A program made the translations under genes and the position numbers. 54,345 nt of DNA from Candidatus Caccovivens sp. (lineage in GTDB: Bacteria > Bacillota > Clostridia > Christensenellales > UBA1242), in contig JBJFCL010000023.1 of NCBI GenBank assembly GCA_051888935.1, forward strand, positions 1-54,345. Direction: 5' to 3'. How positions within the stretch are numbered: the first letter of the stretch is position 1; every line of letters starts with the position of its first letter. The notes under the pieces are model-generated. The model saw nothing but the letters and a program-made list of their open reading frames with translations. It had not been told where the DNA came from and did no database searches. Below, one piece after another: positions 45,828 through 54,219 of this stretch.

Positions 45828-48290
45828 ATGCAAACTTCAATGTTATTAGGAATGTTTGATTGGGTTGCCGATTTCTTTAAGGCACTCTTTGACTTGATTC
45901 CAAAAATTATGTATCTTTTGTATGCGTCTGTGGCATGTGTGCTTGATGTTTTGCAATTGTTTTTCAGAAAACTTGCTGGCCTTGATGTTTATTATGTTGA
46001 CGGCAAACCTGTCACTGGCGATTTGGTAACGAATTTTATTACAGGAATTTTAGGGATAAATTCAGATGGTTTCACTTATTCCGCTCTTTCCACTGTTTTT
46101 TGGTCAATGGTAATTTTTGGTGTGATTATGTGTTTTGCTTGCACCATCGTTGCAATCATCAAAAGTCATTATTCCTATGACGAGAAATCGGCGAAAGGTC
46201 CAATGCAATATGTTTACGCCGCAGGCAAAGCAATCATCAACATGGTTGCAGTGCCAATCATTGTTGTGCTTGGACTTTATGTTTCCGAGGCAATTTTGAC
46301 CGCACTTGACACCATTACTTCCGTTTCAAGTTCATCAGTTGTGGAAATATATGGAGATAAAGTTAGTTTATTGGAATCAGTCGCGACTGCAAAAGATATA
46401 AAAACGGACGAAGACGGGAATTTAATTACTGTTAATGAAAAACAAAAAACCTATGTTTATTACGATATTTTTGGCTTTGCTGGTGGGGTTCAATATGGAA
46501 AGGTAAAAGAAGATCTATTTATTGACCATAAAGATAGTGCCCTTGTTGGTGCAAAAAATCAAACTTTCTCTGGTTCTTTGTTCAAAGTTGCTGCTTACAA
46601 CGCCAATCGTGCGAGAATTGGAGACTGGTATCATAGTGACATAATGTACACAGGTAAGGCTGGAAGTAAATTGGAATTGTTTGCAAATGCCAAGAGTAAT
46701 GAACAATTGGCAGACATGATTGACACTGCATTCGCTTGCAATTTACACTTAAAGGGCGGGAACAGCGTAGATTTTGATTATAGCGATTTGGATATATTAT
46801 CGTTTACATATTTTACAAATTTTTTAAGTACCAAAATGGCTGCATTTTCAAAATTTAATGTCGGTGCTGTCTGGTATTATTATGATTTGTGGCAGTTTAA
46901 CTTTATAGTTGGATTTGCAGGCATAATTGTTTGTGTTTCAATTTTTATAAATATCATTCTTGGATTGATTACTCGTTTGTTCATGTGCATTGGATTGTTT
47001 TTGGTTTCTCCTCCACTTTGGGGTATTGCTCCACTTGATGGAGGGAAAGCTGGAAAGAGTTGGAGAGAAAACTTCATGAAACAAGTCCTCATGGCATATG
47101 GTGCAGTGCTAGGCATGAACATAATGTTTTTGATATTGCCATATATGAATGAGATTGCGTTCTTTAATATTGCCATAGCAGACTATTTGGCTCAAACTCT
47201 AATTATAATTGTTGGGCTTATCACAATCAAGGCATTTATTTCCACATTCTCAGGACTCATTGGTGGTGCAGATGCAAACGACACTGGCGGGAAAATATCC
47301 GAAGAAGTCGGCTCAGTTGTCGGAAAAGCAACTTTGGCAACGGTTGGTGCTGCAAAGATGGGCAAAGCAGTGTTTGACAGAACTCCTATTGGAGCAGCAA
47401 CAAATGCGGCTGGCATGGCTATTGGACATGGAGCAAAACAACTTGCATCAAAGATGAGCTCAAATAAAGTTGGAAAGGCATTAGGCACGGCTGGAAAGGC
47501 TGTTGGCAATTGGTTTAAAGACCCGAAATCTGTTATGGGGGCAGCAGGGAATGCAATTCTTAAAGCAGATAGCAAACATACTTCAAATAAATATGAACAT
47601 AAATCAGAAGAAGAAACGAATAAAGCACTTGACGCACAAAATAAATTGGATAACTTTGATGGCTATTTATATGAACAGGCTCGGTCTAAAGCATTAGATC
47701 AAGTTTATGCTACTGCATCATGGACAGGCTCCACGAAAAGTTCTCGAAGAAATGCAGCAATTAAGACGTTGACTGATGTTGGATATAGTAAAGAACAGGC
47801 AAAGCAGATGGTTAAAGAAATGCAACGAATGCAAGAATGGAAAGTGCCAGGGGTTAGGTCAATACATGATGCTACTGATGCTCTTGATAATAGCATGCGT
47901 AATATACTAAGTAATAACATTGACGAGCATCGCAAAAAGGCTCAAGAACATAAAGATGTTGCCGACCGTTATAGTTTGGCATCTATACAACATGGACAAG
48001 ACAGAGACGCTGCTTGGAAAAAGGCGAGCGATGCTTCTCTAAATCTTGGTGCACCACTTTCATTCGCATATGACCAAGTCAAAGGAGATAAGTTCATTGG
48101 TTCGTTTATGGATAAATCCAAGATTAAAGAAAAACCTGACTTTGAAAAAGAGACATCAAAGAATACAGCAGCAACCAGCAAACAACAAAAGATTGCCACA
48201 GATATTCAAACTTGGCAAGCAATGCATCCAGGAGAAACAATGTCATCAGATGTTTTGGAACAAATCAAAGAGGGGAAATGGAAACCTTAG
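45828..48290 (+). CDS. Polytopic membrane protein, VirB6/TrbL-like (resembles Mbov_0396-family ICE proteins)
   Basis: GAGGAGG RBS; N-terminal LDVLQLFFRKLAGL; TM cluster ending RLF...LFLVSPP...PLDGGK...W...F.KQVLMAYG; Gly/Ala-rich then coiled C-terminal tail. Family assigned from remembered motifs, not a search. Confidence 0.55.
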   Translation: MQTSMLLGMFDWVADFFKALFDLIPKIMYLLYASVACVLDVLQLFFRKLAGLDVYYVDGKPVTGDLVTNFITGILGINSDGFTYSALSTVFWSMVIFGVIMCFACTIVAIIKSHYSYDEKSAKGPMQYVYAAGKAIINMVAVPIIVVLGLYVSEAILTALDTITSVSSSSVVEIYGDKVSLLESVATAKDIKTDEDGNLITVNEKQKTYVYYDIFGFAGGVQYGKVKEDLFIDHKDSALVGAKNQTFSGSLFKVAAYNANRARIGDWYHSDIMYTGKAGSKLELFANAKSNEQLADMIDTAFACNLHLKGGNSVDFDYSDLDILSFTYFTNFLSTKMAAFSKFNVGAVWYYYDLWQFNFIVGFAGIIVCVSIFINIILGLITRLFMCIGLFLVSPPLWGIAPLDGGKAGKSWRENFMKQVLMAYGAVLGMNIMFLILPYMNEIAFFNIAIADYLAQTLIIIVGLITIKAFISTFSGLIGGADANDTGGKISEEVGSVVGKATLATVGAAKMGKAVFDRTPIGAATNAAGMAIGHGAKQLASKMSSNKVGKALGTAGKAVGNWFKDPKSVMGAAGNAILKADSKHTSNKYEHKSEEETNKALDAQNKLDNFDGYLYEQARSKALDQVYATASWTGSTKSSRRNAAIKTLTDVGYSKEQAKQMVKEMQRMQEWKVPGVRSIHDATDALDNSMRNILSNNIDEHRKKAQEHKDVADRYSLASIQHGQDRDAAWKKASDASLNLGAPLSFAYDQVKGDKFIGSFMDKSKIKEKPDFEKETSKNTAATSKQQKIATDIQTWQAMHPGETMSSDVLEQIKEGKWKP

Positions 48291-50067: not shown

Positions 50068-51504
50068 ATGAAAAAATTTGGAAAAATGCTTTGCGCAATT
50101 CTTTCAGTTGCCTTTTTGGTGACAGGTTGTGCAACAGTAGGCTCAATTAAAAATGATTATAGTGAAGTGATTTACAATGGAAATTCCGCTTGTTTGGTGT
50201 CTGACCACCTTTATTTTGGAAATTCTTTTGCTGATTACACCACTTTTGGCGATGATAATGGTTATAAATCAGCAACTTCTGTGTCATACCTATCTAGAAT
50301 AGACATAAACAACATCAATGCAAAGACAGAAGACTATTCACCAAAGACAGTGGAAAAAGTTACTGACGAAGTTGTGGCACAAGCAAAATCCTTTACTTTC
50401 GTTTTGGGCGACTATATTTACTACGCAACGCCAAACCGTCAAAAGTTTGCAGATAGCGATGGAAAATCAGATTTTTATTTCAATTATTCCACAATTTATA
50501 GAAGTAAACTCAATGGTGACAATAAAGAAAAATTGTACACTACCAATGGTGAAGTTACAAATATTGAAGTCTTAAAATTTGATGGGAAATATTATGTTGT
50601 TATGCTCGCTGGCGAAAATCTTGTAAAGATGGAAGTTGGCTCAAAAGTAAAAACAACAGTTGTTGCAAGCGGAGTTGCAAGTTTGGCAATACCAAAGACT
50701 TATCAAAAAGACAAAGTCGGCAGCACTCTTGATTGGAACGGACAAATCTATTACACCACTACAAAAAGTGATGAAAGCAATCCTGACCTTAAAGGTTCTT
50801 ATGTGAACAAAGTTTCTGTTTCGGGTGGAGATGTAAAATCTTACTTTGTTGGACAAAACAAAACATTGACTTTTATTGGACGCGAAAGAGATGTGATGTT
50901 CTATACACTTTCTGGGACTACAACCGAAGTTTTTAAGTTTGATTCCAACGCTGTGACAGGACAGCCAAGTTTTGGAAATGATGAAGATAGGTTTTATTCT
51001 GCTTCAACATTGTCAAACATCACTTTGATTACTGCGCCTGAGGGAACAGTTAGAGGTTATGCTTTCTTGAATTCTTCAAACACAATAGGTTATGTCACAA
51101 ATGCCGGCAAACAAGGAAGCATCACTCTTAAAAATGGAACAGAAACTCTTTCTTCTTACAAATTGCTTCTCATTTCTGGACAGACTGCAATTCTTTCCAC
51201 AACATCAGGAATTTATAAAGCAGACCTTTCAACTGCGTTCAACGGAAATGGTGGAGCAGTTGAAGTTGCTTGCATAGAAATTGTGACAATGACAGCGATC
51301 TATGACGGCACTCTTTATGCTTTTGACGGAACATATATCTATTATTATGCGAAACTTGAAACTGTTGACACTGATGAAGATGACGACACGACAGATGAAG
51401 ATTCTGATGACACTTATTATCTTTACAGAGCAAGAGTAGGAATTCCAAACGGCTATCAACTTTTGAGTTTGACGAAATACGATTCTAGACACACAAAAGG
51501 TTAA
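50068..51504 (+). CDS. Lipoprotein, probable beta-propeller (DUF5050-like), with an acidic C-terminal insert
   Basis: MKK...FLVTG-C lipobox; GDYIYY, IYRSKLNGDNKEKL repeats; DTDEDDDTTDEDSDD. Confidence 0.7.
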   Translation: MKKFGKMLCAILSVAFLVTGCATVGSIKNDYSEVIYNGNSACLVSDHLYFGNSFADYTTFGDDNGYKSATSVSYLSRIDINNINAKTEDYSPKTVEKVTDEVVAQAKSFTFVLGDYIYYATPNRQKFADSDGKSDFYFNYSTIYRSKLNGDNKEKLYTTNGEVTNIEVLKFDGKYYVVMLAGENLVKMEVGSKVKTTVVASGVASLAIPKTYQKDKVGSTLDWNGQIYYTTTKSDESNPDLKGSYVNKVSVSGGDVKSYFVGQNKTLTFIGRERDVMFYTLSGTTTEVFKFDSNAVTGQPSFGNDEDRFYSASTLSNITLITAPEGTVRGYAFLNSSNTIGYVTNAGKQGSITLKNGTETLSSYKLLLISGQTAILSTTSGIYKADLSTAFNGNGGAVEVACIEIVTMTAIYDGTLYAFDGTYIYYYAKLETVDTDEDDDTTDEDSDDTYYLYRARVGIPNGYQLLSLTKYDSRHTKG

Positions 51505-51701
51505 AAATTTTTTAACCTTTTTTTGTTACAGAATTCGTGAAGAAAATTCTTGTTTCTATAAAATTTTAAAACAATACAAAAAAATTTGAATTTCATACTT
51601 TTTCATTTTTTGATTGGATTTTTTTATTTTCTTTTCCAATTTCCTTTTTAAAGACAGCAATTTCTTGCAATTTCAAGCACAAATTTGGCGTTTTTGCAAC
51701 A

Positions 51702-51737
51702 TTCGACATCTTTTGATTTTAGGCGACAAAATCGTCA
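51702..51737. promoter_or_regulatory. Spo0A (0A) boxes upstream of spo0A
   Basis: TTCGACA (perfect, 51702-51708), GGCGACA (51722-51728) and ATCGTCA (51731-51737) near-matches to the reverse complement of TGNCGAA. Confidence 0.6.
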
Positions 51738-51823
51738 TTTTTTTTATTTTTCAAATTTGATTTATATATGTTATGGTTATTTTAGTTTGCTGATAGATGG
51801 CAAAAAATGAAAGGAGAAAAATT

Positions 51824-52570
51824 ATGGAAAACAAAGAAAAGAAAGTTCCAAAAATTTACTTTGCGGACATTACAAAGGATAATCCTGTTTATGATTATTT
51901 CAAAAATAGCGAAAATTTTGCACTTGTTGGAGCAAGCGCAGATGGTAGGCAAGTTGCAGAAGATGTATGCAATCTTATGCCAGATGTTTTGATTATGGAG
52001 GTGATGCTGTCAGGTCTTGACGGATTTGCCGTTCTTGACAAAATCAAAACTCTTAAAACAAATATGCCAAAAGTGTTTTTTGTTTCAAACCTCTCTCATA
52101 GTGGTTTCGTAACGAAAGCAATTCAGTCAGGGGCAAGTTACTTCATGGTTAAGCCAGTTTCACCAGAAAATTTAGAGAGCAGAATAAATGAGGTGTTGGA
52201 TAATGGCCGTAGCAAAGGCGAAAATAAACAGTTGGACGAAAAAATATCCAATATTTTTATCAGTATTGGCATTCCTGCACATATAAAAGGTTATCAATTC
52301 CTTCGTGAAGCAGTAAAACTTGCTGTTGAAGAACCTGAAATTATTGGTTCAATCACAAAAAAATTGTATCCAACTATTGCTGAACGCTTTGAAACAAGTT
52401 CAAGTAAAGTTGAAAGAGGTATGCGTCATGCAATTGAAGTTGCGTGGAATAGGGGAAAAATTGAAAATATTAACAATATTTTTGGATTAAAGATATATAA
52501 TAGAAATGAGAAACCGACCAATGGAGAACTCATTGCTCTTATCGCCGATAAAATGATTATGGATGGCTGA
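51824..52570 (+). CDS. spo0A: Sporulation master regulator Spo0A with an atypical receiver (Glu at the phospho-acceptor position)
   Basis: AAGGAG RBS; GIPAHIKGY.FLREA, ITKKLYP, VERGMRHAIEVAWNRG, KPTNGELIALIAD. Confidence 0.93.
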   Translation: MENKEKKVPKIYFADITKDNPVYDYFKNSENFALVGASADGRQVAEDVCNLMPDVLIMEVMLSGLDGFAVLDKIKTLKTNMPKVFFVSNLSHSGFVTKAIQSGASYFMVKPVSPENLESRINEVLDNGRSKGENKQLDEKISNIFISIGIPAHIKGYQFLREAVKLAVEEPEIIGSITKKLYPTIAERFETSSSKVERGMRHAIEVAWNRGKIENINNIFGLKIYNRNEKPTNGELIALIADKMIMDG

Positions 52571-52677: not shown

Positions 52678-54219
52678 ATGTCTAAAACACTTTCAAAAAT
52701 CTTGGTTGTTTGTGCTATGATAGCGATTATTCCACTGATGATTGTTGGAACAGCTTTTGCTGCTTACTATTCTATTAGCGCACAAGTAAATGTTTATGTT
52801 TATGTAAATGGAGATTCAGTAGCAGAAGATGCTTTTGCTCAGGTGTCTTACAACGACAAAATTTACAATGCAAAAGAAAATTTTGAAATTCAAGAAGGAC
52901 ATTTGAACAAAGTTGAACTTACTGCCAACGCAAAAGGTTATGATTTCAAAGGTTGGTATGTTGGCAATTTGGAAAGTTATGCAAACGCTCTCAAAACTGA
53001 TGAAGTTAAATTTGATGCAGGAAGTGACAAGAAGATAAGTTTCAATATGACTGATTATCAAAATCTCGTAGCCGTTTTTGAGATTAGAACTATTGATGTA
53101 ACATGGAAATATGTTGCAAATCCAAACGATTTAAACACATTAACCTTGACATCCCCAGAAGGTTCAACATCTACTTTTGGTTATGGCGATGCATTGCCTA
53201 AACTTACTTATTCTGGTGATGAATGGACTTTCTTGGGTTGGAATGTAAACAATGGCGAAACAATTTACACATCTGCTAACGCTGAAATTTTTGAAAACGA
53301 AAGCGTGGAACTTTCTGCTGTATGGAAAGAAACTGAAAAAATTGATATCAAATATTATGATGGAAACACTGTTCTTAAAGAAGAAAAAGTTTACGAAAAT
53401 ACAGTTAATGTTTTGACAGATGCTCTTTCACTTGCTCCAACAATTGAAAATGGTTATAGATATTATTGGGCAGATGCACAAGGATTTGAAGTTTCTCAAA
53501 TCAATTCAAACAAATCGGTTGATGTATATCTTAAAAAAGAGCTTATAACATACACAGTATCTCTTTCAACGATAGACTCAGATGTAACATTTGTTTCGAC
53601 CGATACTTTGACATTTAATGTAAATGACAATGCTAAACTTGAAAACATCTTCAATGTAGATAACTATAAAGCAAAATACTCTTTCTGGGATGTTGAAGTT
53701 GCAATTAAGTATAATGATACAACTTATTCAAATATGGACGACCTTGCAGATGCAATTATTACAGTAAGTCCAAATGCTTATGTTCAAGCAAATATAGTCG
53801 CAGATACAACTGTATCAAAGAACTTTACAAATATTTCAGTGACAAACGGAATTACTTTTACAGCTGGTGAAGGAATTATATCAAACAAAGAAGTTTATGA
53901 TAGCACAACTGGAAACATTGCACATGAGATAACAATTATTGAAACACAAGACACAACATCGTCAGTTTACTCCTTGTTGGCAATGGAACAGGACGGACAA
54001 ATAATTCCTCTCTATTCTGATGTAAATGATGATGGAACAAGAGAAGAAGTTGTCTTAAAATATTTGACAGTAAAAATTGGAGCAAACGCATATACTGTTG
54101 AAGTTGATGGAGAACTTAGCATCAATGATATGATTGAAAGCTTAGTTAAAAAAGCAAGTTTGACAGAAACTGCGACTTTGACAATTGACTCTATAATTGC
54201 AAGATATGTTGTTGCTTAA
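52678..54219 (+). CDS. Secreted or membrane-tethered protein with InlB-B/Flg_new-like repeats
   Basis: TAGGAGG RBS; N-terminal hydrophobic signal ending GTAFA; KGYDFKGWY and TFLGW...LSAVW repeats. Confidence 0.7.
   Translation: MSKTLSKILVVCAMIAIIPLMIVGTAFAAYYSISAQVNVYVYVNGDSVAEDAFAQVSYNDKIYNAKENFEIQEGHLNKVELTANAKGYDFKGWYVGNLESYANALKTDEVKFDAGSDKKISFNMTDYQNLVAVFEIRTIDVTWKYVANPNDLNTLTLTSPEGSTSTFGYGDALPKLTYSGDEWTFLGWNVNNGETIYTSANAEIFENESVELSAVWKETEKIDIKYYDGNTVLKEEKVYENTVNVLTDALSLAPTIENGYRYYWADAQGFEVSQINSNKSVDVYLKKELITYTVSLSTIDSDVTFVSTDTLTFNVNDNAKLENIFNVDNYKAKYSFWDVEVAIKYNDTTYSNMDDLADAIITVSPNAYVQANIVADTTVSKNFTNISVTNGITFTAGEGIISNKEVYDSTTGNIAHEITIIETQDTTSSVYSLLAMEQDGQIIPLYSDVNDDGTREEVVLKYLTVKIGANAYTVEVDGELSINDMIESLVKKASLTETATLTIDSIIARYVVA

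Follow-up and report, generated by a model that had tools for sequence, protein, structure and literature searches.

An aspartate-less Spo0A orthologue conserved in Candidatus Caccovivens and probably independent of phosphorylation

Here, we describe the spo0A gene near the end of a 54,345-nucleotide contig of Candidatus Caccovivens sp. (GenBank assembly GCA_051888935.1, contig JBJFCL010000023.1), which was analysed at its full length and is called the window below. The open reading frame (ORF) at 51824-52570 is a true Spo0A, with an N-terminal receiver and a C-terminal Spo0A_C domain, and the phospho-acceptor aspartate of its receiver is replaced by glutamate. According to the accessible parts of two accounts of Spo0A activation (10.1101/2022.02.07.479450; PMC11210211), all studied Spo0A proteins are activated by phosphorylation of a conserved Asp, and the D56A variant of C. 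difficile Spo0A shows a drop of more than 1000-fold.

The window is contig C23 of a genome that we call G000 (1.11 Mb, 40 contigs, 97% complete). Relatives of its Spo0A in a species-representative collection come from metagenome-assembled genomes of uncultured gut Clostridia. In the available excerpt of PMC8035907, Ca. Caccovivens is equated with GTDB genus UBA11517, in family UBA1242 of the order Christensenellales. A 2025 paper on UBA1242 (PMC12306168) reports genomes of <1 Mb with most biosynthesis missing, proposes a partner-dependent life and calls the sporulation genes found there ‘quite unexpected’; it is silent on the Spo0A acceptor and on kinases.

The spo0A gene and its product

The window ORF scores 224.6 bits against the NCBI Spo0A equivalog model TIGR02875 (cut-off 200), and 221 bits in a genome-wide profile search with the same model. 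Pfam assigns it Spo0A_C (PF08769, 1.4e-38) and Response_reg (PF00072, 3.9e-15). Residues 134-246 match the solved Spo0A DNA-binding domains of B. subtilis and G. stearothermophilus (1lq1, 2.3e-36; 1fc3, 1.1e-35); this half is 51-53% identical to its B. subtilis counterpart, and most of the recognition helix is retained. In the HMMER alignment, residues 23-125 lie on the Spo0A receiver 1dz3, and ‘pdvlimEvmlsgldg’ stands opposite ‘pdilllDiimphldg’.

An AlphaFold2 model built with 70 orthologues in the alignment has a mean pLDDT of 91.1 and gives the receiver as a (beta/alpha)5 fold. It places D15 after beta1, Glu59 after beta3 (55-58), S88 at the end of beta4 and K110 after beta5. Foldseek superposes the DNA-binding half on 1lq1 (TMt 0.92, rmsd 1.3 A) and the receiver half on 1qmp (1qmp_B, TMt 0.86, rmsd 1.5 A). 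No other Asp can be shifted into the acceptor position: D54 and D66, on either side of Glu59, belong to the PD and LDG motifs that canonical Spo0A has besides its acceptor.

The original prediction, made from the letters of the DNA, had read the GAG codon as Glu at the acceptor position and had named the motifs FAD-I-T, FVSNL, YFMVKP and SKVERGMR. All four motifs read as claimed, and both the 1dz3 alignment and the structural model put Glu59, and no Asp, at the acceptor site. The DNA-binding domain, described there as intact, indeed matches 1lq1 and 1fc3 and is under strong constraint in the genus (see below). The coordinates of the features are collected in Table 1.

Table 1. Features of the spo0A locus in the window (positions are those of the whole window)
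Feature	Position	Strand	Basis or remark
Exact 0A box, TGTCGAA	51702-51708	-	122 nt upstream of ATG
Ribosome-binding site, AAAGGAG	51810-51816	+	7 nt before ATG; read from sequence
spo0A orthologue with aspartate-less receiver, 248 aa (P0001)	51824..52570	+	TIGR02875, Pfam, orthologues
Receiver (REC) domain, residues 10-127	51851..52204	+	AlphaFold2 (beta/alpha)5, Foldseek, dN/dS
Acidic pair position, D15 kept, second position I16	51866..51871	+	Genus alignment columns
GAG codon, Glu59 at phospho-acceptor position	51998..52000	+	Alignment to 1dz3; position directly after beta3
S88, conserved Ser/Thr position	52085..52087	+	Genus column; end of beta4
K110, conserved pocket lysine	52151..52153	+	Genus column; directly after beta5
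Spo0A_C DNA-binding and transactivation domain, residues 134-246	52223..52561	+	Matches to 1lq1, 1fc3; Foldseek

The protein departs from the canonical response-regulator residue set, with Glu in place of Asp and half of the acidic pair lost, and keeps the Ser/Thr and Lys. With a receiver fold and a residue other than Asp at the acceptor, it falls among the aspartate-less receivers. It has the REC plus Spo0A_C architecture of canonical Spo0A from B. subtilis, G. stearothermophilus and C. difficile (1qmp/1dz3, 1lq1/1fc3), and shares with these proteins the DNA-binding fold, the receiver Ser/Thr and Lys and an 0A box upstream of its own gene. Canonical Spo0A differs in having the acceptor Asp and the second Mg-binding Asp, in having a cognate kinase or phosphorelay, which is missing in most relatives of the window protein, and in having spoIVB as a neighbour, whereas in G000 spoIVB lies on contig C5.

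Glutamate at the acceptor and the scarcity of kinases

Full-length spo0A orthologues with 65-92% identity were found in 21 of the 24 other genus genomes searched, and together with the window's own sequence they carry Glu at the acceptor in 21 cases and Asp in one. All eight outgroup Spo0A sequences from the same order have Asp. A larger set was assembled from the genus sequences, 80 genome-collection loci and 77 family loci, 184 in all and 171 distinct after identical sequences were collapsed; loci L009-L030 and L049-L129 were drawn from one species collection and overlap, and L201, L202, L203 and L205, whose receivers could not be aligned, were excluded from the tree and the counts. The acceptor is Glu in 94 of the distinct sequences, Asp in 74 and Asn in three.

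In the FastTree phylogeny, all genus orthologues fall into one clade of 90 rows with support 100, comprising 88 rows with Glu and two with Asp. The Asp rows, L028 and L128, are nested inside different Glu subclades, so that the ancestor of the genus had Glu, and Asp was regained twice. The acceptor codons are GAA (61), GAG (27), GAC (1) and GAT (1). The original prediction had asked whether Glu is fixed under purifying selection in this clade and whether close relatives show GAT or GAC at this codon. Fixation is borne out by 88 of the 90 distinct orthologues and by selection on both domains; GAT and GAC occur once each, in the two nested reversions.

Pairwise Nei-Gojobori estimates of dN/dS are ~0.19 over 267 receiver pairs and ~0.02 over 264 pairs of DNA-binding domains; as dS is close to saturation (median ~1.3), these values are rough. 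Within the genus, residue 59 is Glu, rarely Asp and nothing else. D15 and K110 are each invariant in 90/90 sequences, position 88 is Ser in 78/90 and Thr in 12/90, and the second acidic, Mg-binding position is acidic in merely 2/90. All 106 diverse canonical Spo0A sequences compared have Asp at the acceptor, and 104 of them also have Asp at the second acidic position.

By column entropy, the most conserved elements in the genus are the beta4-alpha4 loop (0.26), beta5 (0.26) and alpha4 (0.60), and the most variable are alpha1 (1.92) and the loop between beta1 and alpha1 (1.74). In receivers generally, kinases dock mainly on alpha1, and output or dimerisation usually runs through the alpha4-beta5-alpha5 face. 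A variable alpha1 together with a conserved alpha4 and beta5 therefore fits a receiver that has no phosphodonor and has kept its output function.

The supply of kinases was surveyed in 31 genus genomes, including G000; this census and that of the sporulation genes below used named profile models only. HisKA was found in six of the 31 genomes. Exactly one receiver-domain match is present in 22 genomes and none in two; the single match sits at the Spo0A place in 21 of the 22, five of which (G041-G044 and G046) were judged by ORF length alone. There are at most four HATPase_c matches in 22 of the 31 genomes, and in G000 four matches are accounted for by proteins other than kinases, namely GyrB, another protein of GyrB/ParE type, MutL and SpoIIAB. 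Most relatives have no kinase, Hpt or second receiver to feed Spo0A. G000 itself has two kinases, which are paired with regulators other than the window Spo0A. Besides the cassette on contig C39 described below, it has a NarL-type regulator (contig C24) and, on contig C21, a membrane kinase of 454 aa whose HATPase_c match is weak. No Hanks-type kinase (PF00069) was found in this genome.

A similar picture emerges in the wider family, for which 81 UBA1242 genomes from 58 genera were sampled: 77 have a Spo0A match and 20 have HisKA. Cross-tabulated by hand, HisKA is present in 13 and absent from 48 of the 61 family genomes with an Asp-type Spo0A, and is present in just one of the 10 with a Glu or Asn Spo0A. 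On the tree, the acceptor has been lost elsewhere in UBA1242 as well, to Glu in four further lineages and to Asn in two. Since kinases are also missing from genomes with an Asp-type Spo0A, the change from Asp to Glu seems to follow from the loss of kinases rather than to have brought it about. Kinase loss is family-wide and seems to have come before acceptor loss, which then recurred several times.

The UBA1242 loci in question, in which other genera replaced the acceptor independently, are L130/L131, L138/L157, L171 and L192 with Glu, and L185 and L200/L204 with Asn. In several UBA1242 genera (e.g. G064, G047 and G116), alignment to the query is limited to the DNA-binding half.

Sporulation genes, 0A boxes and a second Spo0A

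The genes downstream of Spo0A in the sporulation programme have largely been kept. Two SigF/SigG-like factors are present in 31/31 genus genomes, SpoIVA scores above the cut-off in 30/31, and SpoIIE is full-length in 30/31, with scores under the curated cut-off. The survey for sigF, sigE, sigG and sigK proposed with the original prediction recovers all four in G000, at three loci: spoIIAA-spoIIAB-sigF, ftsZ-x-spoIIGA-sigE-sigG, and sigK. G000 also encodes SpoIIID, SpoIVB, SpoVAD, SpoIIR and SpoIIIAA.

The 0A boxes reported upstream of the gene reduce to one exact TGTCGAA, and the seven exact copies in the whole window are at chance level (7.3 expected). The position of this one box is conserved. 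Of 89 loci with an orthologue, 66 carry TGNCGAA within -300..+30, in most cases between -115 and -130, and the density of exact boxes upstream of spo0A is 2.1 per kb vs 0.12 per kb in the rest of the loci, an 18-fold difference. This conservation suggests that spo0A may be autoregulated through the box at -122. A sigma-70 scan of the upstream region returned a weak match with the box as -35 (TCGACA, 18 nt, CAAAAT); the region has seven matches vs 5.3 by chance, so that their number is no higher than random sequence would give.

A rough set of G000 intergenic sequences contains 29 exact TGTCGAA vs 14.6 expected. A 0A-box regulon drawn from this enrichment was dropped, as four of the boxes lie in a recombinase repeat and the others have no clear sporulation theme. 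The repeat is a CCCCTTGTCGAAAGACAAA motif found ~40 nt upstream of four paralogous serine-recombinase genes of ~500 aa, 42-62% identical to each other (C19:26891, C20:31438, C30:272 and C33:2877); the 0A-box heptamer lies inside a short palindrome.

A second, canonical Spo0A (Spo0A2) is encoded on contig C39 of G000. It scores 253.8 bits on TIGR02875, above the window copy, and has the canonical acidic pair ED, the acceptor Asp and a recognition helix similar to that of the window copy. Spo0A2 (261 aa) belongs to a cassette at C39:18678-21977 (locus L001), with a hybrid HisKA-HATPase_c-REC kinase of 675 aa upstream and a convergent gene for an Hpt protein of 116 aa downstream. Judged by its domains, the cassette is a complete predicted His-Asp-His-Asp relay, which differs from the Spo0F/Spo0B relay in its Hpt-based design.

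The distribution of the cassette is patchy. A second full-length spo0A is found in none of the 24 other genus genomes searched, and the same three genes, ~80% identical, also lie in another genus, on a contig of 6.5 kb (L210); the main Spo0A of that genus has only ~56% identity. In a collection of 5.8 billion proteins, the close relatives of Spo0A2 amount to six clusters at 73-81% identity, after which identity falls to <=51%. The local G+C of the cassette is ~0.29 vs 0.35 for the genome. Together, these observations suggest a laterally moving accessory module. Contamination of the bin was rejected as the source of Spo0A2, since C39 is 95 kb long, has the genome-mean G+C and carries housekeeping genes. 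The original prediction had allowed that a canonical paralogue might exist and the Glu copy be decaying: the paralogue is there, and the Glu copy is a conserved orthologue that is not decaying.

Genes encoding Spo0A_C without a receiver form a further group, with one to three in every genus genome searched. G000 has four stand-alone genes of this kind (121-130 aa), at C32:13612-14004, C32:16877-17254, C32:20406-20798(-) and C20:43243-43608(-). Two of them are identical and lie within a 706-bp inverted repeat (98.3%) that flanks a third. In G008, G016 and G018, Spo0A_C-only pieces make up loci L211-L216. G008 is 95% complete in nine contigs and has no receiver domain whatever; both SpoIIE and SpoIVA are present in it.

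Mode of action, rival explanations and neighbouring genes

With Glu59 in place of the acceptor Asp and the second Mg-binding acid lost, the window protein should be unable to take part in His-Asp phosphotransfer. From this lost chemistry and the missing kinases, we infer that the protein would act independently of phosphorylation, as the original prediction had proposed; the fixed Glu, the lost Mg-binding acid, the scarcity of kinases and the retention of sporulation genes all support that proposal. That this is a kinase-independent Spo0A is well supported. The fuller reading, which we consider likely, is that the window protein is the lineage's own Spo0A orthologue, with an aspartate-less receiver, working as a phosphorylation-independent transcription factor and probably still gating sporulation.

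Under this proposal, Spo0A would bind 0A boxes through its canonical C-terminal domain without phosphorylation. Acidic residue 59, with D15 and K110, probably holds the pocket in an active-like state, and activity could be set by the amount of Spo0A through autoregulation, by a partner or ligand on the beta4-alpha4-beta5 face, or by both. Spo0A most likely still gates entry into the sigmaF/E/G/K programme. In metabolically dependent hosts of ~1 Mb, sporulation may be a fixed stage of the transmission cycle and not a response to starvation. More tentatively, and with slightly less than an even chance of being right in our view, the UBA1242 family as a whole may form endospores without any His-Asp signalling: kinases would have been lost first, the acceptor would then have drifted to Glu or Asn, and a hard-wired sporulation would be started by Spo0A dosage or by a partner of the alpha4-beta5 face.

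The residue pattern has precedents. In aspartate-less receivers, among them ChxR of Chlamydia (Glu) and RitR (Asn), and according to the accessible part of the survey that describes them (PMC4395418), Glu is the commonest replacement (26%), the first acid and Lys are usually kept and the second acid is usually lost, just as in the window Spo0A, and function is expected to be phosphorylation-independent. The window protein differs from the receivers surveyed in its output domain, Spo0A_C, and in its setting, endospore development. A conserved aspartate-less Spo0A joins two known kinds of protein, Spo0A and aspartate-less receivers, and the mechanism proposed for it is well motivated. Excerpts of the same source cite NtrC D54E as a phosphomimetic, in which Glu can stand in for the acyl phosphate and switch the protein on with no kinase involved. 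Such mutants are laboratory-made, however, and Glu alone is not enough for Spo0A, CheY or PhoB (PMC4395418, in part), whereas the Glu of the window Spo0A is accompanied by further fixed changes in the pocket and alpha4. No natural Spo0A without the acceptor Asp was found in the literature searched, which did not extend to subscription journals.

Several observations weigh against our proposal. The two reversions to Asp mean that Glu is not strictly required. Exchange of Asp for Glu alone is insufficient for constitutive activity in B. subtilis Spo0A, as far as the available text of PMC4395418 goes, so that further fixed changes probably matter. Neither alpha/beta SASP (PF00269) nor SpoIID (TIGR02870) was found in G000, so that sporulation itself is only putative. 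G000 also carries the complete C39 module of canonical Spo0A2, hybrid kinase and Hpt protein, which makes a phosphorelay input to sporulation possible in that one genome. Three of the 24 other genus genomes (G008, G016 and G018) retain SigF/G-like factors and have no full-length spo0A, which may therefore be dispensable in them. Finally, no TGNCGAA was found <=350 nt upstream of spoIIAA, spoIIGA, sigG, sigK, spoIIE or spoIVA in G000.

The last two of these points feed the strongest rival, which is that of a repurposed regulator: the Glu-type Spo0A would have given up starting sporulation and would control other genes, and the sigma cascade would have a different trigger, such as the stand-alone Spo0A_C proteins. 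The lack of a canonical 0A box upstream of spoIIAA, spoIIGA and spoIIE fits such a change of role, as do the three genomes with sigma factors and no full-length spo0A, among which G008 keeps both SpoIIE and SpoIVA while G016 has no SpoIIE match and G018 no SpoIVA match. The ubiquity of Spo0A_C-only genes in the genus points the same way, and in G000 an exact 0A box precedes one of them by 173 nt. We nevertheless regard repurposing as unlikely, given that the DNA-binding domain is nearly invariant in the genus, close to that of B. subtilis and mostly unchanged in its recognition helix, and that Spo0A and the sporulation genes occur together in 21 of the 24 genomes; 0A boxes upstream of the sporulation genes may also be degenerate or placed differently. 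A second rival, confined to G000, takes Spo0A2 with its kinase and Hpt as the real trigger and gives the Glu copy a secondary role, as a partner, competitor or repressor acting on the same boxes. The completeness of the C39 module, the higher TIGR02875 score of Spo0A2 and its similar recognition helix speak for it, but no second full-length spo0A is found in the other genus genomes searched, the ~80% identical cassette in a different genus suggests lateral spread, the close relatives are few, the local G+C is low, and the genus-wide pattern is left unexplained. We hold this to be quite improbable, and somewhat more so than repurposing.

Two further explanations can be given little weight. Glu59 might be methylated or phosphorylated by some enzyme and so remain a regulated switch, and Glu methylation is raised as a possibility for aspartate-less receivers generally in the accessible part of PMC4395418. 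No enzyme that could do this was identified, acyl-phosphate chemistry needs the Mg site that has been lost, and Asp is tolerated at the acceptor in two lineages; this makes modification very improbable. A sequencing or assembly error, or a decaying pseudogene, might be suspected, as the genome is a metagenome bin and the public contigs on the stretch cover 51683-51965 and two short pieces, with codon 59 outside them. Comparative data refute this explanation, to which we assign almost no probability: Glu is present in 88 of 90 independent orthologues and is encoded by either of two synonymous codons, the reading frame is uninterrupted, the structural model reaches a pLDDT of 91, and both domains are under purifying selection.

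If phosphorylation-independent, the Glu-type Spo0A would make this lineage an exception to the textbook and review account, as a large natural clade in which Spo0A and the sporulation cascade are kept, the aspartate is gone and the kinase is mostly gone. The clade would serve as a natural experiment in committing to sporulation without a phosphorelay, and could show which parts of a receiver matter once phosphorylation is gone. It also bears on development in the smallest known candidate spore formers, of ~1 Mb; a minimum of 2.3 Mb for spore formers is quoted in the available portion of PMC11536998. The variant could additionally serve as a kinase-independent Spo0A in genetic work.

The genes on either side of spo0A encode a 478-aa lipoprotein-like protein (50068-51504) and a 513-aa membrane protein (52678-54219), both with signal or membrane starts, and neither has a family match. 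They are syntenic in 55/72 and 51/77 loci, yet only ~32% identical, which marks them as fast-evolving. Synteny and family searches gave no evidence that they regulate Spo0A.

Elsewhere in the window, a giant ORF at 2-26836 (+), open at the contig start, encodes at least 8944 aa and contains Listeria-Bacteroides (Flg_new) and InlB B-type repeats, in 27 and nine matched stretches. Further giant ORFs of 5853, 3685 and 2836 aa are found on C39. An 820-aa protein encoded at 45828-48290 (+) matches NCBIfam models for mycoplasma-type integrative and conjugative element (ICE) conjugal-transfer/transmembrane proteins, with 108.5 bits for the MMCAP2_0566 family and 71.3 bits for the Mbov_0396 family.

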